Shown here: one piece after another, positions 3,499 to 24,602 of the stretch
Layout: every line of letters begins with the position of its first letter
Position numbering within the stretch: the first letter of the stretch is position 1
DNA from: an uncultured Lentisphaerota bacterium
Lineage (GTDB): Bacteria > Verrucomicrobiota > Kiritimatiellia > CAIQIC01
Length of the DNA stretch: 64,000 bases
Reading direction: 5' to 3'
Assembly (NCBI GenBank): GCA_903912445.1
Contig: CAIWHP010000218.1
Location: forward strand, 36,329 to 100,328
Notes under the pieces: model-generated
Databases searched by the model: none
Told to the model about the DNA's origin: nothing
What the model saw: only the letters and a program-made list of their open reading frames with translations
Made by a program: the position numbers and the translations under genes

Positions 3499-3509
3499 GC
3501 AGTAGAAAC

Positions 3510-4277
3510 ATGAAATACCTGCTCGCCCCCCTCCTCCTGCTGCTGCTCGCCGGTTGCGCCACCGCGCCCAAGCCGGCATTGCCGGACAATTCCGCCGTCA
3601 TGCCGGTTTCGAAACTGGAACAGGACCACTATGACTGGTTCGGACGGCACGAGGAAATTTTGCGCGTCAAGGACACGGTGCAGCCCGAGGTGGTGTTCAT
3701 CGGCGACTCCATCACGCACCAGTGGGGCGGCACGCCCGCAGCCAAGCCCCATCCGTCACCCGGCGAGAAGGTGCTGAAGACCACGCTGGGAGGTTATCGG
3801 ACGCTGAACCTCGGCTTCGGCTGGGACCGCACGCAGAACGTCCTCTGGCGCATCGAGCACGGCGAACTGGACGGCCTGCAGCCCAAGGCGGTGGTCATCC
3901 ACATCGGCACCAACAACACCAGCCCCGGCCATGCCCGGCCGAACACCGCCGCTGAAATCGCGGAAGGGATCAGCGCGATCTGCGACCGCGTCCACAGCAA
4001 GGTGCCGCACGCCAAGATCATCATCATGGCCATCTTCCCGCGCGAGGCCCAGCCCGAGCATCCGCGCCGGCAAATGATCAACGCCACCAACCGCCTGCTC
4101 CCCGCGGTGGCCCGGGCCCAGCAGGCCGCGTTCGTGGACCTCACGCCGCTGATGCTCGCGCCCGATGGCCAGCTGCCGCGCGAGGTGGCGCGCGACCTCT
4201 GCCATCTGACCGAAAAAGGCTACCAGATCTGGGCCGACGCCTTGCTCCCGATCCTGGCCGGGAGCAAGACCCGCTGA
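3510..4277 (+). CDS. SGNH/GDSL hydrolase family lipoprotein (PAF-acetylhydrolase-like)
   Basis: ATG at 3510 (aa 119 of ORF 3156..4277); lipoprotein signal MKYLLAPLLLLLLAGC; GDS motif FIGDSITHQWGG; C-terminal catalytic-His region ...ARDLCHLTEKGYQIWAD. Stop is 12 bp after the GH2 stop, so probably co-transcribed. Confidence 0.8.
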   Translation: MKYLLAPLLLLLLAGCATAPKPALPDNSAVMPVSKLEQDHYDWFGRHEEILRVKDTVQPEVVFIGDSITHQWGGTPAAKPHPSPGEKVLKTTLGGYRTLNLGFGWDRTQNVLWRIEHGELDGLQPKAVVIHIGTNNTSPGHARPNTAAEIAEGISAICDRVHSKVPHAKIIIMAIFPREAQPEHPRRQMINATNRLLPAVARAQQAAFVDLTPLMLAPDGQLPREVARDLCHLTEKGYQIWADALLPILAGSKTR

Positions 4278-4434
4278 CCGGCCGGGGCTTGCGCTTGGTT
4301 CATCTGGCGGCAGCCCGACAAGCCAGCTCCCGCCTGCGCCGCAGGGACCGCTGCGCTCCACCGCTCTGACGGGCCGACCCCGGAAAGCCGCCCCCTGAGG
4401 CCCTAGAATTTCCCGTGATAACCCTTGTGAAAAA

Positions 4435-4464
4435 CCATTTATTAAGTGCGTGACAGGCGGCGGC
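4435..4464 (+). promoter_or_regulatory. conserved upstream element ccTTTATTAAGTGCGTGAcagg (copy 1), ~100 bp upstream of small-protein gene A
   Basis: Near-identical AT-rich 20-mer occurs again at 5680-5707 upstream of paralogous gene B; AT-rich in a GC-rich background. Confidence 0.35.
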
Positions 4465-4535
4465 TTGTCGGCTGAGATAACCGCCCTGCGGAGCGGGTGT
4501 CCTGCGTGAAGGCCGCCCCGCGCGACAGACAATTT

Positions 4536-4868
4536 ATGAGCGAAAAAGCAGACAGACTTTGCAAGGGCCTCAGCCTCGCCTTGGCGTGCGTAAATGGCGG
4601 GGTGCTGTTCGTAGCGTTCCGGCAATGGCATCAAGTCAGCATCCACAGCAGCGCCAACCACGAAGCGGTGCCGCTGCAAAGCCCGGCTTTCATCCAAGCG
4701 CTCCAGTCCATGCCCTCGCTGCTCCTCGTCCTGTTGCTGGTGACCCTGCTGGCACTCCTCGGCAGCAAAGAATGGCTCCGCCCGTCATGGATTCCCCTCG
4801 GCCTGAATGTGCTCTGGCTGGCCGGCGGCTGCTTCCTGCTGCAGAGCCAGCTTGCGCTCCTGCTGTAA
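4536..4868 (+). CDS. small (110 aa) membrane-associated hypothetical protein, paralog A
   Basis: Internal ATG at aa 14 of track ORF 4497 (GTG) gives MSEKADRLCKGLS..., exactly 110 aa like paralog at 5805..6137. Shared motifs: VNGG/AL, LPLQSP, AWLRP; C-terminal hydrophobic helix. Confidence 0.5.
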   Translation: MSEKADRLCKGLSLALACVNGGVLFVAFRQWHQVSIHSSANHEAVPLQSPAFIQALQSMPSLLLVLLLVTLLALLGSKEWLRPSWIPLGLNVLWLAGGCFLLQSQLALLL

Positions 4869-4906
4869 GACGGGTCGCTGGCACCCCCGCCTGAGTCCCT
4901 CGATAG

Positions 4907-5026
4907 CCCGGGCCCAGCAGGCCGCGCGCGTGGACCTCGCGCCGCAGATGCTCATGCCCGACGGCCAACGGCCGCGCGCCGCGGCGACAGACCTCTGTCA
5001 CCTGACCGGAAAAGACTACCAGTTCG
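4907..5026 (+). pseudogene. degenerate duplicate of the 3' end of the SGNH hydrolase gene (homologous to 4110-4229)
   Basis: ~120 bp at ~80% identity; would encode ARAQQAARVDLAPQMLMPDGQRPRAAATDLCHLTGKDYQ versus ARAQQAAFVDLTPLMLAPDGQLPREVARDLCHLTEKGYQ; no upstream catalytic domain, so a remnant. Confidence 0.5.
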
Positions 5027-5050
5027 CAACAGCGCCGTCTGGTTTCGTTG

Positions 5051-5078
5051 TTGCCGCAGGAGTTGAATCTTCTATAAT
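5051..5078 (+). promoter_or_regulatory. sigma70-like promoter candidate (TTGCCG-16 bp-TATAAT) immediately upstream of the RHH-like regulator gene
   Basis: TTGCCG 5051-5056, TATAAT 5073-5078, only 7 nt before the GTG at 5086 (would make a leaderless transcript); sequence-only prediction. Confidence 0.25.
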
Positions 5079-5085
5079 CGTTTCC

Positions 5086-5565
5086 GTGATTAAAAAGAAT
5101 ACTGCTCGTGGGCGTCCGCCTAAGTTCAACGAGGCCTCCCGCCCTGTCACCGTAACCTTGCCAGAGCGTACGCTCCAACAACTGGCGGCTATTCATGGCG
5201 ACCGGGCGCGCGCCATCGTCAAGGCGGCGGCAACCACAACACGCATACATTCGAGGAAGGCTTCGCCTGTCGCGGTCGTGGAAGCCTTTCACGGGCAGGA
5301 GCTGATTGTGGTCGGACCGAGCCAGAGTCTTCGGCAAATCAAATGGTTGCGCTTGGCTGAGGTCGCCCCGTCACGTTTCTTGCTGGTCATCCCCTCCGGG
5401 ACCATGATTGAAACGCTGGAAGTCGCGGTCAGCGATCTCTTTGACCTCCTGCCGCCATCGGAAACCTACGAGCGCGGCTTGTTGGCGGAATTGCTACGCA
5501 TCTTGCGTTTACGTCGCCGCCAGAAGAATGTGACCAAGGCGGAGATCCTGCTGCTACAGCTTTGA
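5086..5565 (+). CDS. putative ribbon-helix-helix-like regulator, 159 aa, paralog 1
   Basis: GTG at 5086 (aa 94 of ORF 4807..5565). N-terminus GRPPKFNEASRPVTVTLPERTLQQLAAIHGDRARAIVKA resembles CopG/RHH. Paralog at 24117..24602 shares protein sequence with many synonymous third-position changes, so it is under coding constraint. Confidence 0.55.
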   Translation: MIKKNTARGRPPKFNEASRPVTVTLPERTLQQLAAIHGDRARAIVKAAATTTRIHSRKASPVAVVEAFHGQELIVVGPSQSLRQIKWLRLAEVAPSRFLLVIPSGTMIETLEVAVSDLFDLLPPSETYERGLLAELLRILRLRRRQKNVTKAEILLLQL

Positions 5566-5679
5566 ATCGGCCTCTACGGCTGTCCCGGGGCTCACCGCGC
5601 TGCCCGCTTCATCGGCGCAAAAGCAAACTTCAACGACTTGCTGCGCCTTATTTATCCCTTAAATAATCACCCCGAACGG

Positions 5680-5707
5680 CCTTTATTAAGTGCGTGAACG
5701 GAGGCCT
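5680..5707 (+). promoter_or_regulatory. conserved upstream element ccTTTATTAAGTGCGTGAacgg (copy 2), ~120 bp upstream of small-protein gene B
   Basis: Matches element at 4435-4464. Confidence 0.35.
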
Positions 5708-5804
5708 TCTGTCTGCTCTAGTAACGATGTTGTACCTTACGTGTTGGAGTTGCGTGCCAGAGGCTGATTGAACTGCGATGCGATGAGCGAGTGAAACCAA
5801 ACCA

Positions 5805-6137
5805 ATGAATGAGAAGGCAGCCAGGCTTGGTAAACGCGGCAGCAACGCCCTGACGGTGGTGAACGGGGCTTTACTGCTTGCTGCTTTTGGGCCCTTCCAG
5901 CGGCTCCGCTTCCGTTCCGGCGATAGCCCTGCCGCCTTACCGTTGCAGAGCCCTCCGGTCTTCCACTCACGGCTGTCCAGGCACCCACTGCGCGGCGTCG
6001 TGCTGACGGCGATCTTGCGGGCGGTCTTGAGCGGTACAGCCTGGCTCCGACCGCTTTCGAGGCCCTTCGGCGGGCAGCTTCCCTGGCCGGGCGCCGGCAG
6101 GCTCCTGCTGCAGCGCGTGACGGTACTACCGAGGTGA
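5805..6137 (+). CDS. small (110 aa) membrane-associated hypothetical protein, paralog B
   Basis: ATG at 5805; MNEKAARLGKRGSNALTVVNGALLLAAF...LPLQSP...AWLRP; same length and motifs as 4536..4868; stop overlaps the start region of the GT-C gene. Confidence 0.5.
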   Translation: MNEKAARLGKRGSNALTVVNGALLLAAFGPFQRLRFRSGDSPAALPLQSPPVFHSRLSRHPLRGVVLTAILRAVLSGTAWLRPLSRPFGGQLPWPGAGRLLLQRVTVLPR

Positions 6138-6139
6138 GA

Positions 6140-8110
6140 ATGGTCAGCGCGTCACCATCTTATTCGGCGGACGCTGCGCCGTGTCCCCCCGGCCAAGCGC
6201 GCAGGCCCTCTTCACGCCCGACACAACCCTTGGCGCGAGGGCACGCCTGGCTGCTCTACGGCTTACTGCCGCTGCTCGCCTTCGCGGCGACAGGGTGGCT
6301 CTACCGCCATGTCTTCCACTGCGCGCCGATTACCACCGACGAGAACAGCTATATCTTTCAGGCTTACAACTTCCTCGCCGGCGTGATCGCCCGGCCCTGC
6401 CCGCCGTCGCCCGAAAGTTTCTTTCACGCCATGATCATTTGTGACGACCGTGTCGGCTGGCTTTCCCGCTATCCACCCGGCCACGCGCTTTGGTTGTTGC
6501 CCGGCTGCCTGCTGCATCAGCCGCACCTCATGGTGGCGCTGGCAGCCGCCCTGTCCGTGGGGCTCATGGCTCGCGTCGGCGCATTATTCGGGGGCCAGGT
6601 CGCTTGGCTCGCCGCACTTTTGCTGCTGCTCTCCCCTTTCTTTCTCTTCACGCATGGCACCTTGTTGGGCCACACCAGCGGACTGCTGGCCACGCTGCTC
6701 TTGCTGTATGGTTTCATGCGGTGGCAAGGGACGGGCACCGTTCTTTTCGCAGCGCTGGCCGGCCTGGGCTGGAGCTGGCTCTATCTGAATCGCACCTATA
6801 CGGCCGCACTGCTGGTCCCGCCGTTGGCCCTCTACAGCCTGATCACGCTCTTTCGCCAGCGGCACAACAAAACCGCATGGCTCGGCATGCTGCTGTTTGC
6901 CGGCACGGCCGCGACAGGTGTGGCGTTGGTTCTCTTCTACAACTATCTGGCCCTCGGTGATGCTTGGACCATGACCTATTCGTATTTCCGGCCTTCGGAG
7001 ACACTGGGGTTTGGCGTCAAACAAATTGATCATGCCCGTGTCGTGCATACGCTATCCACAGGCTTGCGCATGATGTGGGGCAACCTGCGCCTCTACGATC
7101 AGTGGCTGTTTGGCTTCACGGGCTCGCTCGTGGTGGCCGCGGCAGGGGCCCTTATCGGTTGGCGCAAGCAATGGAGTCCCTTGTTGTTGATGGCGCCGGT
7201 CATGGTCTGGGCCGGGTATGTCCTCTTTTGGTATCACGGCCCGCACGAAGTCGGCCCGGCCTATTATACGGAAACGTTGCCGTTCGTGGTTTTGGCGACC
7301 GCTTTGGGGTTGGCGCGCATACTCGACTTTTTGCGCGCAAGGCACTGGGCCTGGCAGTGCGGCTTGCTTGTGCTCTGCGGCGGATGGCTCACCAGTGATG
7401 CGCGTTTCCTCAGGCAGCAATCCGCCACGGTCAGCACCTTGTGCCAGCCGCTCGGGACCTTGCGCGAGTTTGTGCAGCAGGCGCCATCGAATTCCGTCAT
7501 TGTGACCACCGAGGCCACGCCCTTCACCAGCCGCCGCTATGGCCCTTTGGTCTTCAATCCACAGGGACTCGCGAGTCAGCCCCTGATCGTCCACGCCACA
7601 GGCGCTCAGGATGCCAGTGTGATCCCTAGGATGTTCCCCCACCACCAGGCCTTCACGCTGACCTCAACGGGCGGGCAACATCAACTGGTGCCGCTAATTC
7701 CGGCCGCTTTCAATCTTCCACTCTCCCTCGCAGCGCTGCGCCGCCATACCGGCCAGCGCCTCGGCGGGGACGGGCATCAGCCCGTGGTTCTCACGGCACA
7801 GCAAGCGCGAGACAAACCCGAGTTTCTCGCTTTTGGCCACACCGTGTTGCTGCCACCCGGACGCTTCGCTGCCGAGTTTGATTTTATCATCACCAATGCC
7901 AGCGCAAACGAGACGGTGCTGACCGTGGATATCGCCCGGACCGGCGGCCGTGAAAGCGTGGTGCGGCAAGCCTGCGCGGCCAACACCAGCGCCCCCCTTA
8001 TCGTGACGTTTGCGGTGACCCATTTCACCACGGTAGAACCGCGTGTGTTTTACCAAGGGAGAGGCGATGTCACCCTGCGCGGCATACGTCTGTATGAGCT
8101 TTCGCCGTAG
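6140..8110 (+). CDS. GT-C fold membrane glycosyltransferase (ArnT/PMT-like, GT39/GT83 type) with C-terminal soluble beta-sandwich-like domain
   Basis: ATG at 6140 three bp after upstream stop, preceded by gaggtg. ~11 predicted TM helices in the first 430 aa with loop motifs typical of polyprenyl-phosphate-sugar-dependent GT-C enzymes; ~230 aa C-terminal non-membrane domain. Confidence 0.7.
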   Translation: MVSASPSYSADAAPCPPGQARRPSSRPTQPLARGHAWLLYGLLPLLAFAATGWLYRHVFHCAPITTDENSYIFQAYNFLAGVIARPCPPSPESFFHAMIICDDRVGWLSRYPPGHALWLLPGCLLHQPHLMVALAAALSVGLMARVGALFGGQVAWLAALLLLLSPFFLFTHGTLLGHTSGLLATLLLLYGFMRWQGTGTVLFAALAGLGWSWLYLNRTYTAALLVPPLALYSLITLFRQRHNKTAWLGMLLFAGTAATGVALVLFYNYLALGDAWTMTYSYFRPSETLGFGVKQIDHARVVHTLSTGLRMMWGNLRLYDQWLFGFTGSLVVAAAGALIGWRKQWSPLLLMAPVMVWAGYVLFWYHGPHEVGPAYYTETLPFVVLATALGLARILDFLRARHWAWQCGLLVLCGGWLTSDARFLRQQSATVSTLCQPLGTLREFVQQAPSNSVIVTTEATPFTSRRYGPLVFNPQGLASQPLIVHATGAQDASVIPRMFPHHQAFTLTSTGGQHQLVPLIPAAFNLPLSLAALRRHTGQRLGGDGHQPVVLTAQQARDKPEFLAFGHTVLLPPGRFAAEFDFIITNASANETVLTVDIARTGGRESVVRQACAANTSAPLIVTFAVTHFTTVEPRVFYQGRGDVTLRGIRLYELSP

Positions 8111-8140
8111 CGCCGAGGTAAACCCCAGACTCCATACCAT

Positions 8141-8914
8141 GTGCTTTTCTTCTCCCAGCTTCAGCCTCCAACCCGGATGTCATACATGAACACACCCATG
8201 CAGCCCAGCCTCGAGGGACAGCCCGCACAGCGGGTGGACGTGGTCGTCCCCGTGCTGAACGAGCGGGAGATGCTCCCCCGTTTCCTCAGCCGTATTCAGG
8301 CCCTCGACTTGCCTCTAAACCTGATTTTCGTGGATAACGGTTCCACGGACGGGACCTTGGAGTTTCTGGCCTTGCAACAGGGCGCGAAGGCGGACATCCA
8401 GATCATTGCGCACGGGCGCAATATGGGCTACGGGCGCTCCTTGGCGGACGGGTTACGGGCCTCAACCGCCGCGCGGGTCATCATCATTGACGCCGACTGT
8501 GAATATCCTCCCGAGGCCCTTCCGGACCTATTGGCTGCGCTCGAGCTTTCCCCGATGGTGTATGCAAGCCGTTTCCGAGGCGCCAAGCGCATCGCCATGG
8601 CCCCCTTTCGCCGGTGGGGTAACCGCGGGCTGACAGGCTTTTTTAATTTGCTCTATGGTCAGCACCTTACCGACCTGTACACCGGCATGAAGGCGCTACG
8701 TCGAACCGCCTTCGAAGGTCTGACCTTTACCCGGAACGGTTTTGAACATGTGATGGAGTTGTCGGCCAAAGTGGCCCGGCGCGGGGTGCGGATCGGCGAG
8801 GTGCCGGTGGCCTATGCCCCACGCCAGACCGGCCGTTCCAAAATGCGGCATATCCCCGAATTCCTCAAGGCCGTGTACTGCCTGCTTTACTACCGGAGGA
8901 GCCGCCATGAATGA
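8141..8914 (+). CDS. GT2 family glycosyltransferase, polyprenyl-phosphate sugar synthase-like (DPM synthase / ArnC-like)
   Basis: QRVDVVVPVLNEREMLPRFLSRIQALDLPLNLIFVDNGSTDGT is a GT-A/GT2 N-terminal signature; ~245 aa, no TM, like DPM1/ArnC. True start uncertain (M at 8141, 8177, 8186 or 8198). Confidence 0.75.
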   Translation: MLFFSQLQPPTRMSYMNTPMQPSLEGQPAQRVDVVVPVLNEREMLPRFLSRIQALDLPLNLIFVDNGSTDGTLEFLALQQGAKADIQIIAHGRNMGYGRSLADGLRASTAARVIIIDADCEYPPEALPDLLAALELSPMVYASRFRGAKRIAMAPFRRWGNRGLTGFFNLLYGQHLTDLYTGMKALRRTAFEGLTFTRNGFEHVMELSAKVARRGVRIGEVPVAYAPRQTGRSKMRHIPEFLKAVYCLLYYRRSRHE

Positions 8915-10349
8915 ACGCGTCAGTTTGATTCCTGCCGCCGGTAAAGGTACCCGGGCTTACCCCTATACCAAGAACATCCCCAAAGGACTGCTCAAGATTG
9001 CCGGCAAACCGCTGCTGGAACATCTGGTGATATTGCAGAGGGACCAGTTGCGGATTCAGCACATCTATATGGTGGTGGGAACCACCGGGCAGCAGATCCG
9101 CGACTATTTCGGGGACGGGAGCCGCTGGGGCGTCCGAATTGATTATCTGCAAAACGATCGCGTCGATCTGGGCTTGGCCTATTCCGTCTACTTGGGCGCG
9201 GCGGTCATCCGGGAGCCGTTCCTCTTGATGCTCTCGGACGAATATTATCAGGACACGAACCTCGCCCTGCTGTCAGAGGTTACCCTGCAACAAGACGAAT
9301 TGGGCTGCTGCAGCTTAATCGAAACGCAGGACTGGGATCGCATCCGCCGAAACTACACGGTGACCTTGGAGGATGGTCGCGTCACCCGCCTGCTGGAAAA
9401 ACCCCGGGAACGTCAAGGCGACCTGCTGGGAACCGGGACGTTTCTGCTGTCCCCCAAGATTTTTGACTACCTCAAGCGGGCTTTCTCAGAGCCCTCTGCC
9501 CGGCCCGACTTTATCGGCATGGTGGACCAAGCCGTCCGCACCGGGGAGATCCTCCGCCCGCTGATGCTCACCGGCCAGTACCTCAACATCAACGACGTGG
9601 ACAGCCTGAACTGGGCCAATTTTTTAGGCCGCAGCCGCGATTTACCCAAGGCCAGCCTCAGTGTCATCGTCCAATCCTTTGGGATTGAGGAAGGGCTTTC
9701 CCGCGTCGTGGCGGAGTTCCACGCCTTGCCCCGCGTCACGGAAATCCTGGTGGTGGTGCCGGCCGGAGCTGTCCGTCCCGCATGGATCGATGGCCTTGAA
9801 AAAGCACGCTGGGTGGAGGCCCCGGCAGGGGTTAAGGAATACGGGGGCTTGATTGCCTACGGTCTTGATCAGGCCCGGGGAGAGATTCTTACGGTGGCAG
9901 AAGGAGCCTATTCCTTTTTCCCCGGAGATCTTTCCAAGTTGCTGGCCTATTTGGCCGACGCCGACCTGGTCTTGGGCACACGGACCACGCGCCAGTTGAT
10001 CCAGCAGGGCTCCCGCATGAACGGCGTGGTACGCTTGGCCCATATTTTTCTGGCTATACTGATCGAAATCCTCTGGCTCGACCACCGCATCCGTTTGACC
10101 GATGTGGGTTGTACTTTTCGCGCCATCTGGCGGCACAGCTACTTGGACATCCGGGACCGCTTGAAAAGCGCCGGCCCAGAATATGTCTTGGAAATGGATA
10201 TCGAGACGTTGCGGGCAAGGAAACGCTTGATCGAAGTCCCGGTCAGTTTCCTGCATACGAACGAAGCTCTGGCCGAACGGCATCAGCATGCAAGTGTGTT
10301 TTTCAGGCTGTTGTGGACGATTATCTCTAAACGCTTGGGGCGTGACTAG
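8907..10349 (+). CDS. bifunctional sugar-1-phosphate nucleotidyltransferase (N-term) / GT2 glycosyltransferase (C-term)
   Basis: ATG at 8907 (aa 32 of ORF 8814). N-terminus MNERVSLIPAAGKGTRAYPYTKNIPKGLLKIAGKPLLEH is an NTP-transferase (RmlA/GlmU-like) signature. C-terminal half SVIVQSFGIEEGL...VVVPAGA... is a GT2-like fold. Start overlaps upstream gene by 8 nt. Confidence 0.7.
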   Translation: MNERVSLIPAAGKGTRAYPYTKNIPKGLLKIAGKPLLEHLVILQRDQLRIQHIYMVVGTTGQQIRDYFGDGSRWGVRIDYLQNDRVDLGLAYSVYLGAAVIREPFLLMLSDEYYQDTNLALLSEVTLQQDELGCCSLIETQDWDRIRRNYTVTLEDGRVTRLLEKPRERQGDLLGTGTFLLSPKIFDYLKRAFSEPSARPDFIGMVDQAVRTGEILRPLMLTGQYLNINDVDSLNWANFLGRSRDLPKASLSVIVQSFGIEEGLSRVVAEFHALPRVTEILVVVPAGAVRPAWIDGLEKARWVEAPAGVKEYGGLIAYGLDQARGEILTVAEGAYSFFPGDLSKLLAYLADADLVLGTRTTRQLIQQGSRMNGVVRLAHIFLAILIEILWLDHRIRLTDVGCTFRAIWRHSYLDIRDRLKSAGPEYVLEMDIETLRARKRLIEVPVSFLHTNEALAERHQHASVFFRLLWTIISKRLGRD

Positions 10350-10930: not shown

Positions 10931-11743
10931 TCAGGGTCGCTTGCGCAGGTAGGGTGCAGCCAACAGGCTGAACTCGGGAATGCCCCCGCCGCCCCACTGT
11001 ATACACAGGGCAGCCGAGCGGCTGTGCCGGGCATAATGTTCCACCCGCAGCGGATGCATCCCCGCGGTCAGCGGGACCTTCACCGTCCGCAGACTGTTGG
11101 TCCACGGCTGATCATGCCAGTTGTCGAGCACGCAGCGCTCATCGAGATACAGCCGCAGGCCCTCCTGGCTCTGGCAGGTGAAGCTGTACTCGGCGGTCTG
11201 CGGCGCCTGCAGCCAGCCGGTCCAGCGGGAGGAGAAATCGCCCTTGCCAAACCACCACGGCAGCGGGTGCTCATCCGGTTCGGCCAGCAAAGCCATCGCG
11301 TAGCTATACCAAGCGACCTCGGTAAGGTTGGCCTCCCGATAATAGGTGATCAACAGACCTTCAGGCTGTGACCACCGCCGGAACTCGCCGACGGCCATGG
11401 TGACGAACAGCGCTCCGGCAATGGCCAGCAGATAGGAGGCCGCCCGCCAGCGTGCCCGCCGGCGCAGCGCAGGCGGACAGCGGGCGTAGAGTGCGGCCGC
11501 CAGCTGCTCGGCATATCGGCGCAGCGCCCGCCCCTGTATGTCCAAGGCATCCGGCGTCACCGCGGCCACGTGGGCGGGGGGCGGCGCGAGTTGCAGGCTG
11601 GCGGCCACCTGCACCAACCGTGTGTGCGCCTGCGCCAGCGCGCTCTGCCCGGCGGCCAGTCCGGTCGTCGTCAGTGCGCGGGACAGGTCACGGGCCGCGC
11701 CGTGAATTTTTCCCCGCAAATCCCGATAGAGTTCTGCATCCAT
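10931..11743 (-). CDS. single-pass membrane protein with C-terminal PA14 domain
   Basis: ATG at 11743 (aa 31 of ORF ..11833). TM helix ASYLLAIAGALFVTMAV, then PA14-like domain (GWLQAPQTAEYSFTCQSQEGLRLYLDERCVLDNW ... WGGGGIPEFSLLAAPYLRKRP). Strongly similar to the C-terminal 190 aa of ORF 22088..24112. Confidence 0.7.
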   Translation of the reverse strand: MDAELYRDLRGKIHGAARDLSRALTTTGLAAGQSALAQAHTRLVQVAASLQLAPPPAHVAAVTPDALDIQGRALRRYAEQLAAALYARCPPALRRRARWRAASYLLAIAGALFVTMAVGEFRRWSQPEGLLITYYREANLTEVAWYSYAMALLAEPDEHPLPWWFGKGDFSSRWTGWLQAPQTAEYSFTCQSQEGLRLYLDERCVLDNWHDQPWTNSLRTVKVPLTAGMHPLRVEHYARHSRSAALCIQWGGGGIPEFSLLAAPYLRKRP

Positions 11744-11756
11744 GGTATCGGAGTGC

Positions 11757-12863
11757 CTATAAGAGTGAACGCAGCCAGGACCAGGCGTCCCAAGCATTCT
11801 GGCCCGGATGCACCACCTGCCCCAGCCATACATAGTAGGTGGGCGAAAACGAGGCGATGAGGGCGATGAGCATCAACACGCGCTCGAACTGCGCCCGCAG
11901 CCGCGGCCCCGCCTCGTCCGCCTTTTGCAGCGCGTGGACCAGGCCGTGCCACGCGGGGGCCCAGGCGAGCAGCGCAAACACGCGGGTGGTATCGAGACAG
12001 AAAAAAGTGATGCCGTAGAAGAGGGCCAGCAGGCCGAGCAGGCACCACGCATAACCGCGGTCGAGACGCAGCAGGATGGCCACGCTGCCGGCGAGCGCAA
12101 ACCAGCCCATATTCTGCAGGGAAAAGAGGGCCACCGGCAGGTGCTCCAGGTTGTACTTGATCCAATAGAGTAAATTGCGCTCACCGACAAATTCGGCGCG
12201 CGAAACCACCTCGATGCTGTTGATGTGCAGGAACACCCGGACGGCGAGCCAGCCGGCGAGGACGCCGAGCGTGGCCAGCGCCACATGGAGCCAGGTCACG
12301 CCGCTGTCGCGCGCCCGCCAGCGCAGCAGCCACAGGCCGGGCACGGCAAACATGACGATGGGATGGTTATAGGAGCCCAAGGCGGCGAGCAGGAACACCA
12401 CCCACCCCTGCCGGACGTACAGCATCAAGGCGAGCACCAGGAAGGTGATCGCGTCCGGCATCCCGATCCACGAGAGCAAGACCATGGTCAGCGGGCTGGC
12501 CAACAGGAGTGCCAGCAGGAGCAGGGCCCAGAGCGCCCCATAGCGCCGGCGGGCCGCGCGCACGAGGTAGAGAAAGCCGGCCAGGATGACGGAGAAACAC
12601 AGGAGACCAAAGGGTGCCGGCGCCTGCCAGCCGGTCAGATGCGCCAGCACGGGCAGCAGCGGAGATTCTTGGAAATAATTTTCGCGGTGGATGTCGGTAC
12701 GCTGCGCATAGGGATTCTTGGCCAGCTCGCGATAAAATTCCCGCGGCACCACGCCGAGACCACAGTAGAGGATGGTGGCCACCACCAGCAGCGCCAGCAC
12801 CAGGTAAAAATGCTGCCGCACACAGCGGCGCACCCACGCCTCAAGTTGATCAAAGATGGTCAT
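11757..12863 (-). CDS. polytopic integral membrane protein (9-10 TM), unknown family
   Basis: ATG at 12863 (aa 12 of ORF ..12896); hydrophobic throughout; stop 14 bp before the PA14 gene start, so the two are likely co-transcribed. Confidence 0.6.
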   Translation of the reverse strand: MTIFDQLEAWVRRCVRQHFYLVLALLVVATILYCGLGVVPREFYRELAKNPYAQRTDIHRENYFQESPLLPVLAHLTGWQAPAPFGLLCFSVILAGFLYLVRAARRRYGALWALLLLALLLASPLTMVLLSWIGMPDAITFLVLALMLYVRQGWVVFLLAALGSYNHPIVMFAVPGLWLLRWRARDSGVTWLHVALATLGVLAGWLAVRVFLHINSIEVVSRAEFVGERNLLYWIKYNLEHLPVALFSLQNMGWFALAGSVAILLRLDRGYAWCLLGLLALFYGITFFCLDTTRVFALLAWAPAWHGLVHALQKADEAGPRLRAQFERVLMLIALIASFSPTYYVWLGQVVHPGQNAWDAWSWLRSLL

Positions 12864-13135
12864 CGCCCGGTCACCAGCCGACACGCCCCGGCCCAACCAT
12901 GCGCCGCGGAGCGGGAAGCATACGACGCATGGAGTTAAGCAGGATGCGTACCGGGCGTCACGCGCTTAATTATGCCGTCCCGGATGCCTTATTACGGAGA
13001 AACCGGCGGCGCGTGGGCCGGCGGGCGGCCTGCCGGCGCCGAGGCGCGCCGCGGCCTGTCAGTTTCATGGGCAGGCTTTCCTATTGACAACGCAATTTAT
13101 TTATTTACAGTTGCCGCCCGTACTTGGATGACAAT

Positions 13136-21000: not shown

Positions 21001-21141
21001 CTGAAGGCCGGGGCCTACGCCCTCCGCGTAGGCGTCTGCCGGGTGGAAGACGGCAAGCGGTTGCGGGTGCAAAGCAGCCCCTTGCCCTATAAATCCAACG
21101 CCGTCCAGCTCCCGACCCCGCTGGTCATCGCTCCCCCTTGA
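18052..21141 (+). CDS. large GT-C fold membrane glycosyltransferase (ArnT/PMT-like) with TPR-like and tandem beta-sandwich C-terminal domains
   Basis: ATG at 18052; first ~450 aa are polytopic with PMT_2/ArnT-like loop motifs; then ~580 aa extracytoplasmic region with a TPR-like segment and two carbohydrate-binding-like beta-sandwich domains. Confidence 0.7.
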   Translation: MFRVMAMPTLNRLQKLALLLIVALGFGLRFGGLDHDLHEEIQYHPDTPKQVRAVQRFLDGQYYAHFGILDYDAYPYLHSHIVEYISRAGSALHGGMQALTGVPGTEWRPDYYQIFWLALGWNALLSTLLILLVFQLARENWDLRAAFAAAFFLAVSPMDVIACHFAGADTTAGFFATVTVFFALRIYRLGRIRDYALAALFAACAFSSKYHAGMALLPVLAAHGLRMGSWRAQCTRTAVGRLGLLGLIGLTALVLTTPVFLTHFTETVRNIIGFFNQVTSFRGADETIRASGWSTKLVFGLQHNVPLLVQILGPLAFVAALLGLKEVFRRQPEPRALILYVLPLCYFLAGGGLRPMAHPIVQTLTTPLVFVAAGLVFTRPWLRSVPEHPLLAGLRKGLMALALGLLALHAARESFLFWHQDTRRLALAWTEENVPPACAVHTDNYSFSSDKFASPTNATGWFQAVAAQPPAAPYGHLKSFSVETDGLPIHRNIPVHLFLQPSAWLQPGFQLPIGQRSASEDGNRIICDNGPEFVRSEKLLNLQAADKPVVRCLVSATPLREAWIGVQNGAAPNFVEVHFGGSSRRSSMKPGEVSWWRIPAPRASWPIDPNHAWYRLRVQAHYGRARVLLATRPEELGVFLFNAGRYADALPCLLKTTAAHPALLATLALICAQQTGHDLAPATRAQLERRAQPLADMRDSASCRQVAGIAPAYLEALDFIKLECAGFVHSPGCRRIDDLAAAGRLALEKVPLTGAAATNYPPFSICSPMLQLDPGVYTLQLRVRGSDRTTAPLRWRMEAQDMFGASLAETDVELPPLDNRNYTNVTATFHMPLAPPEVRLVFKPQTLDGVVLDEVAIKPDVLATIRWLQQTRQQASPLRGALPAPALFHHNVDTIFQGGLRLEQITCDRTTLQPGQALHVGVQFRLEAPGLNTAGLAFFIHVVDPTGQIAFQGDFGLADLLQVYAPRIAAPAQAYKTLAVPATLKAGAYALRVGVCRVEDGKRLRVQSSPLPYKSNAVQLPTPLVIAPP

Positions 21142-21311
21142 TTGCCCATGGAGAGGAAACCGGCCACCCGCGTTTCCGATACCGGGAACAGCCCTCAACC
21201 CGCAGCAAGGCCGGGGACGAGCGGATGCTGCTCACAGGGCACACCCGGCGTGCTTTCGAGTTGCCGCAGGCAGGGAAGCGCCTATACTCACGCGCAGGAG
21301 ACCAAGACCCT

Positions 21312-22016
21312 ATGAAAAGAAACTTGCGCGCTTTCCTCTGCTTGGGACTGCTGGGTGTGGCCATGCCTTGGCTGGCGGGCTGTGGCGGCGACTCGTCCGA
21401 TAGCACCGGCGCCGCTGCTGCCGCCGCCACCAACTCCTCCGACAGTGCTTCGGGCGATACCAACAGCGTGACGGACGCCTCGGGTACGCTGCCCCATTTC
21501 CCCGATGGACTGCATCCGGACGCCACCGCCAGCGCATCCATTGCGGCGGCGTTCAACGACCGTATTTCCAGCAGCCCCTCCGGGATTGGCGACAACGATC
21601 CGAACGTCATCGTCTGCCTGGGCGACAGCATCACGCTCTCCGGTTATCCTGGCATTCTCGCCGGCATGACCGGCAAGACCTGCGTCAATGAAGGGAAGCC
21701 TGGCGAGGAAAGCGGCGGCGGCGCGAGCCGGGTCGCCGGTGTTTTGGAAGCCAACAAACCGGCCTACCTCTGCATTATGTATGGATCGAACGACGTCCAC
21801 TCACACCTCTCGTTCGACTCCGTCATCAGCCATCTGGCCACCATCATTGCTTCAGCGCGCGCGCACAACACGATTCCGATTCTGGCCACCATTCCCCCGA
21901 TGTCCGGCCCCCGCTTCGGCGGCTTAGCCGGTGATGTACGCGATCTCAACAACATGATCCGCTCCCTGGCCTCCAGTTCCGGGACGGCGCTGGCGGATGT
22001 GGAACGCGAGTTCTGA
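21312..22016 (+). CDS. SGNH/GDSL hydrolase lipoprotein with long Ser/Asp/Ala-rich linker
   Basis: ATG at 21312 (aa 59 of ORF 21138); lipobox LAGCGG; ~80 aa low-complexity Ser/Thr/Asp/Ala linker; SGNH block I VIVCLGDSITLSG. Confidence 0.75.
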   Translation: MKRNLRAFLCLGLLGVAMPWLAGCGGDSSDSTGAAAAAATNSSDSASGDTNSVTDASGTLPHFPDGLHPDATASASIAAAFNDRISSSPSGIGDNDPNVIVCLGDSITLSGYPGILAGMTGKTCVNEGKPGEESGGGASRVAGVLEANKPAYLCIMYGSNDVHSHLSFDSVISHLATIIASARAHNTIPILATIPPMSGPRFGGLAGDVRDLNNMIRSLASSSGTALADVEREF

Positions 22017-22087: not shown

Positions 22088-24112
22088 TCACGGACGCTTG
22101 CGCAGATAAGGCGCGGCGAGCAGGGTGTTCTCGGGAATGCCGCCGCCGCACCAACGGACACGCAGGGCGCCAGACTGGTCGTGCGAGAAGTGCTCCACCT
22201 TCAACGGATGCAGGCCGGCCGTGAGATGGACCTTGGCGGCGGTGCCGCTGGTGCTGAACCGCTGCCGGCGCCAGTTATCCAATACGCACTGGCCGTCGAG
22301 ATAGAAGCGGATACCGTCTGAGCTTTGGCTGTAGAAGATGTAGTCCGCCTCGCGCGGCACGTCCAGGTAGCCGGTCCAGCACGACGAGAAGCCGCCGGGC
22401 AGGATCCACCAGATCGGCGGATCCTCTTCAAAATCGCGGACCAGATCGTGCTCGACACCGCGCCAGGCCGGGAATTTCAGGCTGACATCCTGATAGTACG
22501 TCACGCTCAAGCCCTCCGGCCGGATCCAGCGGTTCACCTCGCCCGCCTCCAACAGAGACCAAAACAGGATGCCAACCACGAGGGCCCAGCGGACCGTGCG
22601 GCGCCGGTCGGCGAGCGTGACGGCGACCGACGGCGTTTCCAGGAACAGCTGGAGTGGCGCGGGCGTGGCAGCCCGCCGCCGCAGCCGCCGCCAGAGCAGC
22701 AGCCCCACCAGCGTCACCAGGACCAGCAGCGAGAACAGCAGGGTGACGTGGACGGAGCGCAGATAGGCGGGATCGTCCAGCGTGAGGATGTTGGGGAGGA
22801 GCAGATCCGGCGCACCGCAGATAAAGTTGCGCTCAATGGACTCCATCCGCCATAAAGCCCAGTGATAGCGGAGTTGGAGCAACAGCGCGGCCACGGCGGC
22901 CAACATACCGAAGCCAAGCCAGCGGATCTGAATGAAGCACTGATGCAGCCGCTGAAAACGCGCACAGGCCATCACCACCAGAAACACCAGCGGCAGGACC
23001 AGGAACCGCGAGGGCACGCGCTCGGTGTTCGGGACGGCGGCCGGCAGGAACGCAATGAATTGCTGATAGAAGTCGCCCAAGGAGAGGGCCAGCAGGATCA
23101 ACAAGGGCAGATAAAGGCCGCGAAAACGGGCGGCCGCGAGTTCCGGCCGCGCACTGAAGGCGAACCAGATGCCGAAGATGAAAAGGAACGCGACACCGAC
23201 CAGGCCTATGTACAGGTCGTATTCCCAGGGGAACAGCGCCTTCTTGAACAAGGCGGTCGAGTCCAGGCGGGCAAGGATGTCGGCGAGCGAGCCGAAGCCG
23301 CTCTCGAACTCCGCCGCCGAAAGTTTGCCGAGCGTCAGCGCGGCCGGCGCGAGGCGGAAGACCGACAACAGGCCGGTCAACGCCGCCGCCAGCAAGGCCG
23401 TCCAGCGGGCGCGGCTGCTGCAGAGGAACAGCAGGCCCAGAAAAATCATGCACAGCGCATAGAGATGAATCGAGCCCTGCAGCAGCACGAACAGGTTGAC
23501 CAGGGCGATCCGGACCCCGGTCTCGAAAACCGGCGCGCGGCGGTCGAGCGCGTCGAGGACGAAAGCGGCCAGCATGGCCAGGTAAAAATAGCCGTTCCAT
23601 TTGTGGCCCGCGGCGACGTGCGCAATGATGTGCCCGTTGAGATTGAACAGCAGGACCAAAACAAGGAACGCGACCGGCGACAGGTCGAGCCGGCGCCGCA
23701 ACATCAAACACCCCCAGAAACCGATGGCAAAATGCAGCAGGACATTGACGACCACGAACTGCTTCAGGGTCAGGAAGGCGAGCAGCGGGGCCTGCGGCGC
23801 GAGCCAGTAGAGCGCTTCCGGCACGGCCATGAACCGCTGTGTCGGCCGCAGCGGCTGCACCGGGGTCGACACATGATAGGGCGCCTGCTGGGTCTGCCAA
23901 GCCTGCTGGATGATGTGGTAGTACTGCTGCTCGACCTTCCAATCAATCGCATGGAAGAACGGCTCCGCCTCCTGGCACTTGAAGAACGAACACCAGAAGC
24001 CGCCGCCCAGCAACAGGACGAGCGCCAGGAAGAGCATCTGCATCCGCTTAAAGCGGCTGGCGGAAGGCGGACCAAACGCAAAGGTTAGAAAGTTGTCCAC
24101 CCAGGCGGGCAT
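22088..24112 (-). CDS. polytopic membrane protein fused to C-terminal PA14 domain (fused counterpart of the 12863..10931 gene pair)
   Basis: ATG at 24112 (aa 36 of GTG ORF ..24217); ~480 aa polytopic region, TM anchor, then PA14-like domain ending ...WCGGGIPENTLLAAPYLRKRP, near-identical to the ending of 10931..11743. Confidence 0.7.
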   Translation of the reverse strand: MPAWVDNFLTFAFGPPSASRFKRMQMLFLALVLLLGGGFWCSFFKCQEAEPFFHAIDWKVEQQYYHIIQQAWQTQQAPYHVSTPVQPLRPTQRFMAVPEALYWLAPQAPLLAFLTLKQFVVVNVLLHFAIGFWGCLMLRRRLDLSPVAFLVLVLLFNLNGHIIAHVAAGHKWNGYFYLAMLAAFVLDALDRRAPVFETGVRIALVNLFVLLQGSIHLYALCMIFLGLLFLCSSRARWTALLAAALTGLLSVFRLAPAALTLGKLSAAEFESGFGSLADILARLDSTALFKKALFPWEYDLYIGLVGVAFLFIFGIWFAFSARPELAAARFRGLYLPLLILLALSLGDFYQQFIAFLPAAVPNTERVPSRFLVLPLVFLVVMACARFQRLHQCFIQIRWLGFGMLAAVAALLLQLRYHWALWRMESIERNFICGAPDLLLPNILTLDDPAYLRSVHVTLLFSLLVLVTLVGLLLWRRLRRRAATPAPLQLFLETPSVAVTLADRRRTVRWALVVGILFWSLLEAGEVNRWIRPEGLSVTYYQDVSLKFPAWRGVEHDLVRDFEEDPPIWWILPGGFSSCWTGYLDVPREADYIFYSQSSDGIRFYLDGQCVLDNWRRQRFSTSGTAAKVHLTAGLHPLKVEHFSHDQSGALRVRWCGGGIPENTLLAAPYLRKRP

Positions 24113-24116
24113 GGCC

Positions 24117-24602
24117 TTACTTTTTTCCGGTGCGGATGAGCAGAATTTCCGCCTTGGAGACGTCCTGCTGCCGGCGGCGCTGGCGCAGCAAGCGGTGCAG
24201 GGCGCCCAATAATTCACGCTCGTATTTCTCGTCCGGCATCAACCGGTCCAAGAGGTCGGAAACGGCCACCTCCAACTGCTCGATCGCCGTGCCCGTCGGG
24301 ATCACCAGCAGATGCCGCGCCGGCGCGACCTCACCGAGCCGCAGCCACGGGATTTCCTGCAGCCGCCGGCTGGGCCCGACGATGATCACCGCTTCGTTGG
24401 GCCGCACCTCGACCACATCCACCAGGGGCCGTTCTTCCGCCTTAAAGCCGATGGCCAAGGTGGTCGCCTTGACGATGGCGCGTGCACGGTCGCCATGCAG
24501 GGCCGCGAGCTGCTGCAGGATGCGTTCCGGCAGCGTCACCGTGATGGGGCGGCGCGCCTCTTCGAATTTGGGTGGCCGCCCGCTGAGTTTACGTCGTTCC
24601 AT
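24117..24602 (-). CDS. putative ribbon-helix-helix-like regulator, 161 aa, paralog 2
   Basis: ATG at 24602 (aa 9 of ORF ..24626); MERRKLSGRPPKFEEARRPITVTLPERILQQLAALHGDRARAIVKA...; paralog of 5086..5565; stop (24117-24119) is 4 nt from the PA14 gene start, so the two are likely co-transcribed. Confidence 0.55.
   Translation of the reverse strand: MERRKLSGRPPKFEEARRPITVTLPERILQQLAALHGDRARAIVKATTLAIGFKAEERPLVDVVEVRPNEAVIIVGPSRRLQEIPWLRLGEVAPARHLLVIPTGTAIEQLEVAVSDLLDRLMPDEKYERELLGALHRLLRQRRRQQDVSKAEILLIRTGKK

Follow-up and report, generated by a model that had tools for sequence, protein, structure and literature searches.

Tandem duplication of a hydrolase gene end, a bipartite DNA element and a small membrane-protein gene in an uncultured PVC-group bacterium

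The closest described counterpart of the locus that we analyzed is the tandem segmental duplication that is resolved by degeneration, with which it shares direct, adjacent and collinear copies as well as relatives that carry a single copy. Parts of the locus also recall the gene remnants found in chimeric over-calls from GC-rich DNA, ribbon-helix-helix (CopG/Arc/MetJ-type) factors, and duplications of a promoter or operator that recruit new genes. In the window (the whole stretch of 64,000 nucleotides that was analyzed), about 0.8 kb is doubled in tandem in an uncultured bacterium of the PVC group; it comprises the 3' end of a hydrolase gene, a control element and the gene for a small membrane protein. 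An earlier note on this DNA had described the tandem duplication, and all of the parts it listed were found, each beyond chance, with small corrections. The duplication itself is an ordinary duplication with degeneration; with most of the second copy decayed, it amounts to common turnover of a bacterial genome and is routine as such. The most useful by-product of the locus is a bipartite element of about 48 nt that is rare, undescribed and strongly conserved.

The two copies

The two units (4091-4886 and 4887 to about 6155) are adjacent and in direct orientation, and their parts come in the same order: a piece of an SGNH hydrolase gene, the AT-rich element and an ORF of 110 aa. At the junction (4886..4887), which is the left limit of a 139-nt repeat, the end of unit 1, 18 nt past the stop codon of orf1, meets the start of unit 2. 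Self-alignment of the locus, the check that had been proposed for it, gave significant nucleotide similarity between the copies. The SGNH pieces (4091-4229 and 4887-5025) are 81.3% identical over 139 nt without gaps (E = 3e-35), as expected from the earlier description, although the offset is 796 nt and not 797; this similarity stops at 4231/5027, 46 nt short of the SGNH stop codon. The 110-aa ORFs match at 66% over 177 nt (BLASTN, E = 1e-9) and are 61% identical when aligned without gaps. The offset between the copies rises from 796 at the fragment to 1244 at the element (+448) and is 1269 at the ORFs. The extra length of copy 2 had been attributed "exactly" to the regulator gene, but that gene has 480 nt and the offset grows by 448, with about 656 nt of copy 2 (5026-5681) replacing about 208 nt of copy 1 (4230-4437). 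Beyond the three islands, intergenic DNA from copy 1 and from copy 2 was no more alike than shuffled sequence in global alignment. Their leaders have weak local similarity (z = 3.6), and the DNA 3' of orf1 (4869-4906) and 3' of orf2 (6138-6175) was not more similar than shuffles.

The repeat derives from the 3' quarter of SGNH-1 (3531..4277, + strand), an intact gene for a GDSL/SGNH hydrolase of 248 aa that matches Pfam PF13472 over the full profile (positions 1-178 of 178, E = 2.6e-31). Its 3' end is 84-86% identical to the orthologs in two relatives, which we call B (L008/L009) and D (L049). Copy 1 of the repeat (4091..4229, +) lies within this functional gene. Copy 2 (4887..5027, +) is a remnant of 47 codons with the D-x-x-H block; it is missing ~186 codons from the start of SGNH-1 and 15 from its end, and instead of a complete catalytic domain (blocks I-V) it holds only the surroundings of block V. 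In D, the sequence that matches the fragment is the end of an intact gene. Differences between the two SGNH pieces are spread evenly over the codon positions (9/11/8) and dN/dS is 0.90, as for neutral change, which agrees with the earlier view of the piece as a pseudogene fragment: it is a functionless remnant. We also considered whether the fragment might be the missing 3' end of a second SGNH gene (SGNH2, 21138..22016). SGNH2 is only 20% identical to SGNH-1, and its short C terminus (ADVEREF and then the stop codon) is shared with its ortholog in L049, so SGNH2 is not truncated.

The small-protein genes have diverged in kind. orf1 (4536..4868, +) is the intact copy and encodes a membrane protein of 110 aa with three predicted transmembrane (TM) segments; in orf2 (5805..6137, +), the frame is open and the TM segments and the family motif are lost. 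Both have 110 codons and align without gaps at 40% amino acid identity (BLASTP, E = 1e-19), so their equal length and homology stand as first described, but the strings that they share are actually PLQSP and WLRP. They are not equivalent paralogs, as had been supposed, because orf2 lacks the hydrophobic segments and the motif of the family. A family HMM built from 13 outside homologs gives 113 bits for orf1 and 62 for orf2; an HMM from distant members only gives 91 and 43. The GRAVY index is 0.80 for orf1 and 0.09 for orf2, and 0.75-1.40 for the other 14 family members. orf1 has three TM-like peaks; orf2 has none, with 16 R+K, and contains 14 R, 11 P and 11 G versus 3, 5 and 7 in orf1. The family motif KEWLRPxWIPLxLNxLWL is lost in orf2 (KEW became TAW, WIPL became SRPF, and LNVLWL became GQLPWP). 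orf1 matches the profile over its full length and has both the three hydrophobic segments and the motif (KEWLRP..LN.LWL).

The family of small three-TM proteins (P0121-P0134) matches no Pfam or NCBIfam family. A word-index protein search with orf1 returned only orf1 itself and wrongly suggested an orphan gene, which an HMMER profile search corrected. In B, the ortholog of orf1 (P0122) holds the equivalent position after the SGNH gene. Another ORF of 110 aa, upstream of the membrane-protein ortholog in L007, was considered as a diverged member of the family and was rejected (hhalign probability of 1% and no HMM match).

reg1 and the bipartite element

Copy 1 has no regulator gene; copy 2 has reg1 (5086..5565, +), which encodes 159 aa with an invariant GRPPKF followed by a strand-helix-helix-like sequence pattern. 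Its family is widespread (384 homologs were detected) and has no Pfam domain; the paralog reg2 (24117..24602, -) is 63% identical, with dN/dS of 0.08. The description of reg1 as an RHH-like regulator was not substantiated by any Pfam, NCBIfam, PDB or fold match. Searches of Pfam and NCBIfam gave nothing at E <= 0.1, a profile of 42 members compared with PDB sequences hit only L4 (E = 0.56), and a fold search and PADLOC gave nothing usable. A role as a regulator is our conjecture.

The promoter region of reg1 (5038..5085, +; GTCTGGTTTC..TTGCCG-N16-TATAAT) includes a sigma-70-like match at 5051-5078, the only one that the sigma-70 scan found. Just 7 nt separate the -10 box from the GTG start codon, and the transcript is probably leaderless; the same layout occurs upstream of relatives of reg1 in L001, L004 and L049. 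Among 42 family members, the start lies 8-9 residues ahead of GRPPKF, which fits a start at GTG 5086. A longer ORF (4807..5565, 252 aa) arises because the 141-nt remnant of SGNH-1 is in frame with the regulator, and the family-typical promoter falls inside its supposed N-terminal extension. The earlier note was right that this ORF joins the fragment to the regulator by coincidence: it is a chimeric over-call. Public gene calls repeat it, as in P0001 (211 aa, from GTG 4930), which is from the same population; the next closest relative of reg1 is P0002. The 252-aa ORF and the public calls of 211 and 176 aa all bear spurious N-terminal extensions, and, in annotation, orf2 should not be labeled a functional paralog.

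The AT-rich element reported for both copies is there, and more often than in shuffled sequence: the 16-mer TTTATTAAGTGCGTGA occurs exactly at 4438-4453 and 5682-5697, and with up to 3 mismatches it has 3 matches in the window versus 0.08 expected (none of 100 shuffles reached 3). By sequence comparison across five genomes, it is a bipartite motif of ~48 nt that is better conserved than the protein it precedes. Copy 1 of the element (4410..4457, +) consists of box 1 (TTCCCGTGATAAC), a 15-nt spacer and box 2 (TTTATTAAGTGCGTGACAGG), and its 15-mer TTATTAAGTGCGTGA starts 97 nt ahead of the start codon of orf1, with a leader of 82 nt. Copy 2 (5654..5701, +) has a degenerate box 1 (ATCCCTTAAATAATC) and the exact 16-mer as box 2; it lies 117 nt past the stop codon of reg1, and its 15-mer starts 122 nt before the start codon of orf2, with a leader of 107 nt. 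A third, diverged element (12954..13004, -) has ATAATTAAGCGCGTGA with a CTCCGTAATAAGG box at equal spacing (PWM score of 23.2) and sits upstream of ORFs for a membrane protein (11757..12896, -) and a PA14-domain protein (10931..11833, -). A PWM scan of the 64 kb found these three sites only, versus ~0.05 expected.

The element is not a mere relic of the duplication, since it is conserved in other genomes as well. In L008/L009, L044/L045 and L043, homologous genes for small proteins follow it at a distance of 94 nt. In four genomes, the 15-mer is kept 94-97 nt upstream of family genes (with one mismatch in L043) and the leaders are 79-82 nt long, while the proteins are only ~35-55% identical. 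Within the window, the core of the copy-2 element is exact, while the surrounding DNA has no detectable likeness to copy 1 in global alignment. In L049 and L004, a regulator again precedes the element (by 132 and 115 nt, respectively); in B, L043 and L044, the element and ORF follow the upstream gene and no regulator intervenes ahead of the element.

Neither copy of the element contains sigma-70 hexamers (TTGACA-like and TATAAT-like, 16-18 nt apart), and Rfam has no match in 3400-6600 at E <= 1. RNAalifold gave no conserved structure for the leader (consensus of -4.3 kcal/mol with an unfavorable covariation term of +1.28), and only the leader's length (79-82 nt) is conserved. A metagenome scan with the bipartite pattern returned 33 matches, all due to chance, mostly in low-GC contigs and four of them within a peptidase coding region; this is weak negative evidence because the window's own contig is evidently absent from that collection. 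The literature that we searched held nothing relevant on promoter or operator motifs in the PVC group.

Copy 2 adjoins an operon-like block (6134..10349, +) for a 658-aa membrane protein, a GT2 glycosyltransferase (8141..8914, +) and a sugar nucleotidyltransferase (8814..10349, +). The start codon of the membrane-protein gene (GTG 6134) overlaps the stop codon of orf2 by 4 nt, and no promoter or terminator signal above chance was seen between 5700 and 6140. The 658-aa protein has no match among PDB sequences. The block is syntenic in L007, where it has no regulator, element or family ORF.

History of the locus

Comparison with related genomes, which had been suggested as a check, showed that each half occurs singly. 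B (L008/L009 and a 19.6-kb contig) has a single SGNH1-element-orf arrangement, and D (L049, a 2.3-kb contig) has a single SGNH1-reg1-element arrangement, in which the intact end of SGNH-1 is followed by reg1, whose promoter and GTG start are those of the window, and then by the exact element. The junction between the fragment and reg1 in the window is the D-type junction minus ~115 nt, so reg1 was probably not inserted into copy 2. In D and at the P0002 locus, reg1 is followed by a hydrolase gene of the SGNH2 type and not by the small ORF. The intact SGNH1-reg1-element-orf unit that would have preceded the duplication was not seen in any genome.

The two parts of the repeat differ in age. Third-position divergence (p) is 0.17 for the SGNH pair versus 0.41 for the ORF pair, which does not fit one old duplication, such as the earlier note proposed, followed by drift; by bootstrap, the two pair distances differ by 0.19-0.47 (confidence interval). 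The fragment has a Jukes-Cantor (JC) branch length of 0.205, and orf2 has one of 0.333. If W is the window lineage, the SGNH node postdates the split between W and B, and the ORF node coincides with that split or predates it. A uniform age across the unit, as for a single event without conversion, was thus rejected. A single event with neutral decay is therefore not enough; it has to be supplemented, by gene conversion or by faster evolution of the ORF.

On balance, we favor a head-to-tail duplication that was resolved by degeneration, in which the unit likely included reg1 and an element came to lie in front of a new operon. The unit would have extended from the last quarter of SGNH-1 to ~18 nt beyond the small-protein gene, and would have carried the conserved bipartite promoter/operator element and, most likely, reg1. 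If the duplication was resolved in this way, each redundant part survives in one copy only. The upstream copy keeps the working end of the hydrolase gene, the element at its canonical distance and the intact orf1, with no regulator gene; the downstream copy keeps the dead 141-nt hydrolase remnant, reg1 with its own promoter, the exact core of the element and a drifted orf2. The apparent youth of the SGNH remnant relative to the ORF pair is most likely due to temporary gene conversion from the functional gene. In copy 2, selection probably still preserves reg1 and the element. The element now precedes the glycan-synthesis operon (membrane protein, GT2 and nucleotidyltransferase), to whose transcription it probably contributes, and orf2 would be no more than a leader.

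It is possible, if rather unlikely, that the locus is instead a mosaic whose halves had separate histories from the start. The downstream half would be native and D-type, with an older paralog of the small protein, and the upstream half B-type; unequal or illegitimate recombination, perhaps involving diverged strains, would have joined the two. The single halves in B and D and the discordant ages of the two islands are consistent with this, as is the fact that orf1 is closer to its ortholog in B than to orf2 (70.5% versus 61% nucleotide identity; third-position p of 0.31 versus 0.41). However, the 3' part of SGNH-1 in the window resembles the fragment more than it resembles B (third-position p of 0.17 versus 0.34), which points to a recent common ancestor in this lineage that the import of a B-type half does not predict. 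Also, D has no small ORF after the element, and a mosaic needs more events than duplication with conversion.

We consider it quite unlikely that orf2 is functional, whether as a neofunctionalized Arg/Pro-rich small protein or as a regulatory uORF that is coupled translationally to the membrane-protein gene. The frame of orf2 runs through all 110 codons, uninterrupted by any stop codon or frameshift, and its start and stop lie at homologous positions. The element upstream is exactly conserved, the stop codon of orf2 overlaps the next start by 4 nt, and dN/dS on the orf2 branch (0.49-0.63, roughly 0.5-0.6) is below 1. But dN/dS has little power here because the family itself is at ~0.5 (0.52 for the functional pair of orf1 and its B ortholog), and in simulations 8.9% of neutrally mutated copies of the ORF stay open in this GC-rich DNA. 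Differences between orf1 and orf2 are even across codon positions (42/42/46), the composition of orf2 has shifted toward that of an off-frame GC-rich translation (R, P and G), every hallmark of the family is lost, and no protein like orf2 was found among the word-index matches or the cluster representatives of the profile search. orf2 is probably a decaying copy, either a pseudogene or a leader.

Even more doubtful is a simple tandem duplication that lacked the regulator, with reg1 and its promoter inserted into copy 2 only later. The earlier note had left insertion or deletion open, and D shows that the adjacency is native. B, L043 and L044 do have the element and ORF without an intervening regulator, and reg1 and its promoter form a compact module that is sharply bounded on the left (5027/5028-5038). 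However, D independently has reg1 there, after an intact SGNH-1 and with a homologous junction, and independent insertion at the same site is improbable. Furthermore, D and the distant L004 both have the regulator ahead of the element, at a spacing of ~115-132 nt, and insertion leaves the age discordance unexplained as well. Finally, chance similarity or an assembly artefact can practically be dismissed given E values of 3e-35 and 1e-9, 0 of 100 shuffles, and the agreement of three independent assemblies; L005 and L006, which are 99.9% identical over the orf1 end, the fragment and the regulator, show that the duplication is not an assembly artefact.

Comparison with known systems

Three components of the locus are uncatalogued in PVC bacteria: the ~110-aa small-protein family, which word-index searches miss; the ~160-aa reg family, with 384 detected members and seemingly leaderless promoters; and the rare bipartite DNA element of ~48 nt, which is better conserved than the gene behind it. 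The reg family and the element are a candidate regulator-operator pair. Speculatively, and with far more doubt than belief, TTyCCCGTAATAA, a 14-16-nt spacer and TTATTAAGTGCGTGAC might form an operator/promoter that is recognized by the GRPPKF reg family, as an undescribed control module specific to the PVC group. Recognition could, just as tentatively, involve an AT-hook-like arm and an RHH-like module, with small membrane proteins and envelope-glycan operons as targets. If so, the window captures regulatory rewiring, in which a duplicated element beside reg1 now controls a glycosyltransferase operon while the original gene decays. As a matter of method, a single small locus that combines a gene remnant with a decayed ORF and an exact element makes it easy to see which part is under selection.

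As in other tandem duplications resolved by degeneration, loss is complementary: copy 2 has the decaying SGNH end and orf2, and copy 1 lacks the regulator. Unlike in those systems, divergence is uneven, so that conversion or a mosaic is needed, and the pre-duplication unit was not observed. The 141-nt in-frame remnant extends an ORF, and public calls repeat the error, as with gene remnants in other chimeric over-calls from GC-rich DNA; here, unlike in other cases, the frames were fused by a traceable deletion, of ~115 nt when compared with the intact junction in D.

In reg1, the pattern RPVTVTLPERTLQQLAAI..DRARAIVKA resembles the strand-helix-helix DNA-binding module of ribbon-helix-helix factors; the protein is small, and its gene is next to a conserved AT-rich site that resembles an inverted repeat. 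Unlike those factors, reg1 matches no RHH profile, solved structure or fold; its C terminus adds an alpha/beta domain of ~100 aa, and it carries the invariant GRPPKF arm. Any binding of DNA by reg1 is putative. Unlike known promoter/operator duplications, the element does not match sigma-70, and its control of genes is proposed from sequence. The locus does resemble such duplications in that the core of the copy-2 element is kept, the original gene decays and a different operon follows, and in that a third copy of the element precedes another pair of genes, for a membrane protein and a PA14 protein.

The tandem repeat and the SGNH remnant

A repeat search and a local BLASTN self-comparison of the region found three collinear islands shared by the upstream unit (copy 1) and the downstream unit (copy 2). 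First, the 3' end of SGNH-1 (3531..4277), a complete GDSL/SGNH hydrolase (PF13472, E = 2.6e-31), is duplicated, as the earlier note had claimed: 4091-4229 matches 4887-5025 at 81.3% identity over 139 nt, ungapped (E = 3e-35). The offset is corrected to 796, and the similarity ends 46 nt short of the SGNH-1 stop codon. Second, an AT-rich element recurs (4438-4461 versus 5682-5705), as had also been noticed: the 16-mer TTTATTAAGTGCGTGA is exact in both copies, and none of 100 shuffles reached its count in the window. Third, 4671-4847 matches 5940-6116 at 66% identity over 177 nt (E = 1e-9). This island lies within two ORFs, orf1 (4536..4868) and orf2 (5805..6137), each of 110 codons, whose proteins are 40% identical without gaps (E = 1e-19) and whose DNA is 61% identical over the full length. 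The ORFs are of equal length, as the earlier note said, but the strings they share are PLQSP and WLRP, not LPLQSP and AWLRP. By global alignment, the intergenic DNA between the islands does not exceed shuffled sequence in similarity; the leaders of the two copies show weak local similarity (z = 3.6).

Copy 2 was said to exceed copy 1 by exactly the 480-nt regulator gene, reg1 (5086..5565). The excess is actually 448 nt when measured to the element and 473 nt when measured by the ORF starts, because about 656 nt stand in place of about 208 nt. The arrangement is not an assembly artefact, since two independent public assemblies (L005 and L006) carry the stretch from the end of orf1 via the SGNH fragment into reg1 at 99.9% identity.

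The fragment (4887-5027) spans 47 codons of SGNH-1. The differences between the two are spread evenly across codon positions (9, 11, and 8) and dN/dS is 0.90, which marks the fragment, on its substitution pattern, as a dead remnant. Homologous recombination between the 139-nt direct repeats (4091-4229 and 4887-5025) would remove the element and orf1 and would make an in-frame fusion of SGNH-1 with reg1; the population could contain a variant with this deletion. The window also encodes a second, distant SGNH hydrolase (21138-22016, +; 20% identical to SGNH-1), which matches only positions 1-151 of the 178 in the GDSL profile and seemingly lacks the D-x-x-H block. Its ortholog in relative D (L049) has the identical end, ..ADVEREF*, which shows that the short form is a conserved one and not a truncation.

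ORF 4807..5565 runs through the fragment into reg1. In an alignment of 42 members of the reg1 family, the proteins begin 8-9 residues ahead of an invariant GRPPKF, which fits a GTG start at 5086 and rules out the SGNH-derived extension. The ORF is thus a chimeric over-call that takes in a pseudogene fragment, in agreement with the earlier note. Public calls of reg1 orthologs also begin too far upstream: the L005/L006 protein (P0001) has 211 aa, from the equivalent of a GTG at 4930, and the L049 protein (P0004) has 176 aa, from an ATG within the -10 region. Spurious N-termini have therefore spread into protein databases.

The two 110-aa ORFs and the history of the locus

A word-index search with orf1 matched only orf1 itself, whereas an exhaustive profile search found 13 further proteins of this type (93-134 aa), which align over their whole length. 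The family, for which we found no Pfam or NCBIfam model, consists of small membrane proteins with three TM segments and the motif ..LLALLIGKEWLRPxWIPLxLNxLWL... A family HMM built from the outside members alone gave orf1 113 bits and orf2 62; one built from distant members alone gave 91 and 43. The GRAVY score of orf2 is 0.09, versus 0.75-1.40 for the other 14 members. orf2 encodes 16 Arg plus Lys and 11 Pro, has lost the motif residues, shows no TM-like hydrophobic peak, and is shifted in composition toward an off-frame translation of GC-rich DNA. Its open frame is weak evidence of function, since 8.9% of mutated copies keep the frame open in a neutral simulation of this DNA. dN/dS is uninformative on orf2 because it is 0.49-0.63 in all ORF pairs, including the functional pair of orf1 and its ortholog in relative B (L008/L009). 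Overall, the functional gene is likely to be orf1, with orf2 a decaying copy. In the syntenic locus of a Lentisphaerae MAG, a small membrane ORF of exactly 110 aa (L007 3319-3651) directly precedes the gene orthologous to that of the 658-aa membrane protein. It is unrelated to orf1 and orf2 (hhalign probability of homology 1%); its placement may reflect positional analogy or coincidence.

Three relatives bear on the gene order. The contigs of B (with P0122) encode a GDSL hydrolase (the SGNH-1 ortholog, 84% identical in nucleotides), the element, a 111-aa gene, and then a 175-aa gene (-), which amounts to a single copy of the copy-1 arrangement. Further along, all on the minus strand, are a PA14 membrane protein, a reg2-type gene, and a GYF protein, so the copy-1-type unit of B directly adjoins the counterpart of the locus at 22088-25440. 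In D, the SGNH-1 ortholog has its 3' end intact; a reg1 ortholog follows, sharing the promoter and the GTG start, and after it come the exact element, an ortholog of the second SGNH (21138..22016), and PA14. The junction of the fragment with reg1 aligns with that of D on both flanks; about 115 nt in between (the gene end and spacer) are missing, and this deletion put the remnant in frame with reg1. The remnant, reg1, and the element thus lie next to one another, in this order, by inheritance. The earlier note proposed a duplication followed by insertion or deletion: the duplication is real, but reg1 is unlikely to have been inserted after the unit had been duplicated. In relative C (L007), a block of membrane protein, GT2, and nucleotidyltransferase lies beside the GYF gene; an SGNH gene, the regulator, the element, and a family ORF are all lacking there.

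The two pairs do not have the same age. With B as the outgroup, Jukes-Cantor branch lengths for the SGNH segment were 0.025 for the functional gene, 0.205 for the fragment, and 0.186 for B, and those for the ORFs were 0.218 for orf1, 0.333 for orf2, and 0.176 for B; these estimates, like the third-position values below, are noisy, as they are based on 141 and 333 aligned bases, respectively. At third positions, the proportion of differences was 0.17 between SGNH-1 and the fragment versus 0.34 between SGNH-1 and B, and 0.41 between orf1 and orf2 versus 0.31 between orf1 and B. The SGNH pair split well after the window's lineage separated from B, and the ORF pair split at or before that separation. 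One old duplication with undisturbed decay does not fit these values (0.17 versus 0.41 at third positions; by bootstrap, the two pair distances differ by 0.19-0.47).

We lean toward a duplication that predates the split from B, after which the functional SGNH-1 would have acted as the donor in gene conversion that homogenised the fragment, and B would have lost copy 2. A serious rival, although we think it fairly improbable, is that the locus is a mosaic of B-type and D-type arrangements, that is, of SGNH-1, element, and ORF with SGNH-1, reg1, and element. The remaining explanation for the greater distance between orf1 and orf2 is that both ORF copies evolved faster after the duplication.

The bipartite element and the reg family

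The 15-mer TTATTAAGTGCGTGA occurs without mismatch 94 nt ahead of the orf1 ortholog in B, where the remainder of the intergenic region is no longer alignable to the window. A distant family member, P0125 (L044/L045), likewise has an exact copy 94 nt ahead of it, and P0123 (L043) has a copy with one mismatch at the same distance; no element precedes P0124. All of the sites share an upstream box (consensus ~TTyCCCGTAATAA) 14-16 nt ahead of this second box. The leaders of the four canonical genes are 79 nt (L008, L043, and L044) or 82 nt (window, 4454-4535), versus 107 nt for orf2, and the leader sequences are not conserved.

A weight matrix found three sites in the 64-kb window, where about 0.05 would be expected. 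The third, diverged site (12954-13004, -) is ahead of genes for a multi-TM protein without a Pfam match (11757..12896, -) and a 300-aa PA14 protein (10931..11833, -), whose C-terminus, ..LLAAPYLRKRP, is nearly the same in the 674-aa PA14 protein (22088..24112). The element is one of few AT-rich sites in the surrounding GC-rich region.

The element also lies downstream of reg-family genes, by 117 nt in the window, 132 nt in L049, and 115 nt in L004; it is absent from L001 and L048. The L004 site (10598-10613, TTTATTATGTGCGTGA, with a GATAAT box upstream) follows a reg-family gene 69% identical to reg1 and lies 39 nt ahead of a radical-SAM gene; the short L004 leader has local similarity to that of L049 (z = 4.1). 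We found no match to the sigma-70 consensus at the element, no Rfam family at the locus, and no covarying structure in the element leader. The element is a conserved cis-element and not a relic of the duplication, and it is best read as a dedicated promoter and/or operator. A literature search found no description of such a PVC promoter or operator motif.

We detected 384 members of the reg1 family (~160 aa), all without a Pfam domain, in MAGs that carry the labels Verrucomicrobia, Kiritimatiellaeota, and Lentisphaerae. reg1 had been called RHH-like: its sequence would fit a strand-helix-helix pattern, which is a resemblance only. The invariant N-terminal GRPPKF (residues 9-14, window 5086-5130, alignment A4) resembles the core of an AT-hook (GRP), a motif that contacts AT-rich DNA in its minor groove. 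A link between the element and the reg family is a conjecture.

A paralog, reg2 (24117..24602, -), is 63% identical to reg1 in amino acids, and a dN/dS of 0.08 indicates strong purifying selection on the pair. It sits 4 nt upstream of the 674-aa multi-TM protein (22088-24112, -) with its C-terminal PA14 domain, and a GYF_2/DUF5362 protein (24799..25440, -) is upstream of reg2; this trio is syntenic in B. Tandem reg-family paralogs also occur outside the window, as P0032 and P0051 have consecutive locus tags (EPN23_05590 and EPN23_05595) on one 114-kb contig of a Verrucomicrobia MAG.

Upstream of reg1 is TTGCCG-N16-TATAAT, with the -10 box 7 nt from the start codon. This layout and a (C)TGGTTTC motif are also found ahead of relatives in L001 and L049, with a similar layout in L004 (TTGyCr-N16/17-TATAAT; window 5038-5086, L001 ~6640-6693, L004 ~9950-10001, and L049 ~176-225). 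The -10 box ends 7-8 nt ahead of the start codon, which is GTG in the window and L049. The recurring spacing suggests that leaderless mRNAs are a trait of the family.

Probable present-day working and significance

Copy 1 consists of the functional SGNH-1 and, after it, a canonical unit of element, leader, and orf1. In copy 2, selection visibly keeps two parts: reg1, because its family is under strong purifying selection, and the core of the element, because the core is exact and the flanking DNA is at most weakly similar to copy 1. The orf2 stop codon overlaps the start of the 658-aa membrane protein, which is followed by a GT2 glycosyltransferase and a sugar nucleotidyltransferase. From the element to the membrane-protein gene, no other promoter-like or terminator-like signal rose above chance. 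The duplicated element may now help to drive transcription of the glycan operon, leaving orf2 as no more than a leader. That the element and the reg family form a hitherto undescribed, PVC-specific regulator-operator module, with the locus recording regulatory rewiring, is doubtful.

The element, for its conservation, and the orf1-type and reg-type protein families, both uncatalogued, deserve a note. As a duplication the locus is ordinary. Degeneration has resolved a tandem duplication here and has left a gene remnant through which gene callers read; events of this kind are common, and this is a new example.
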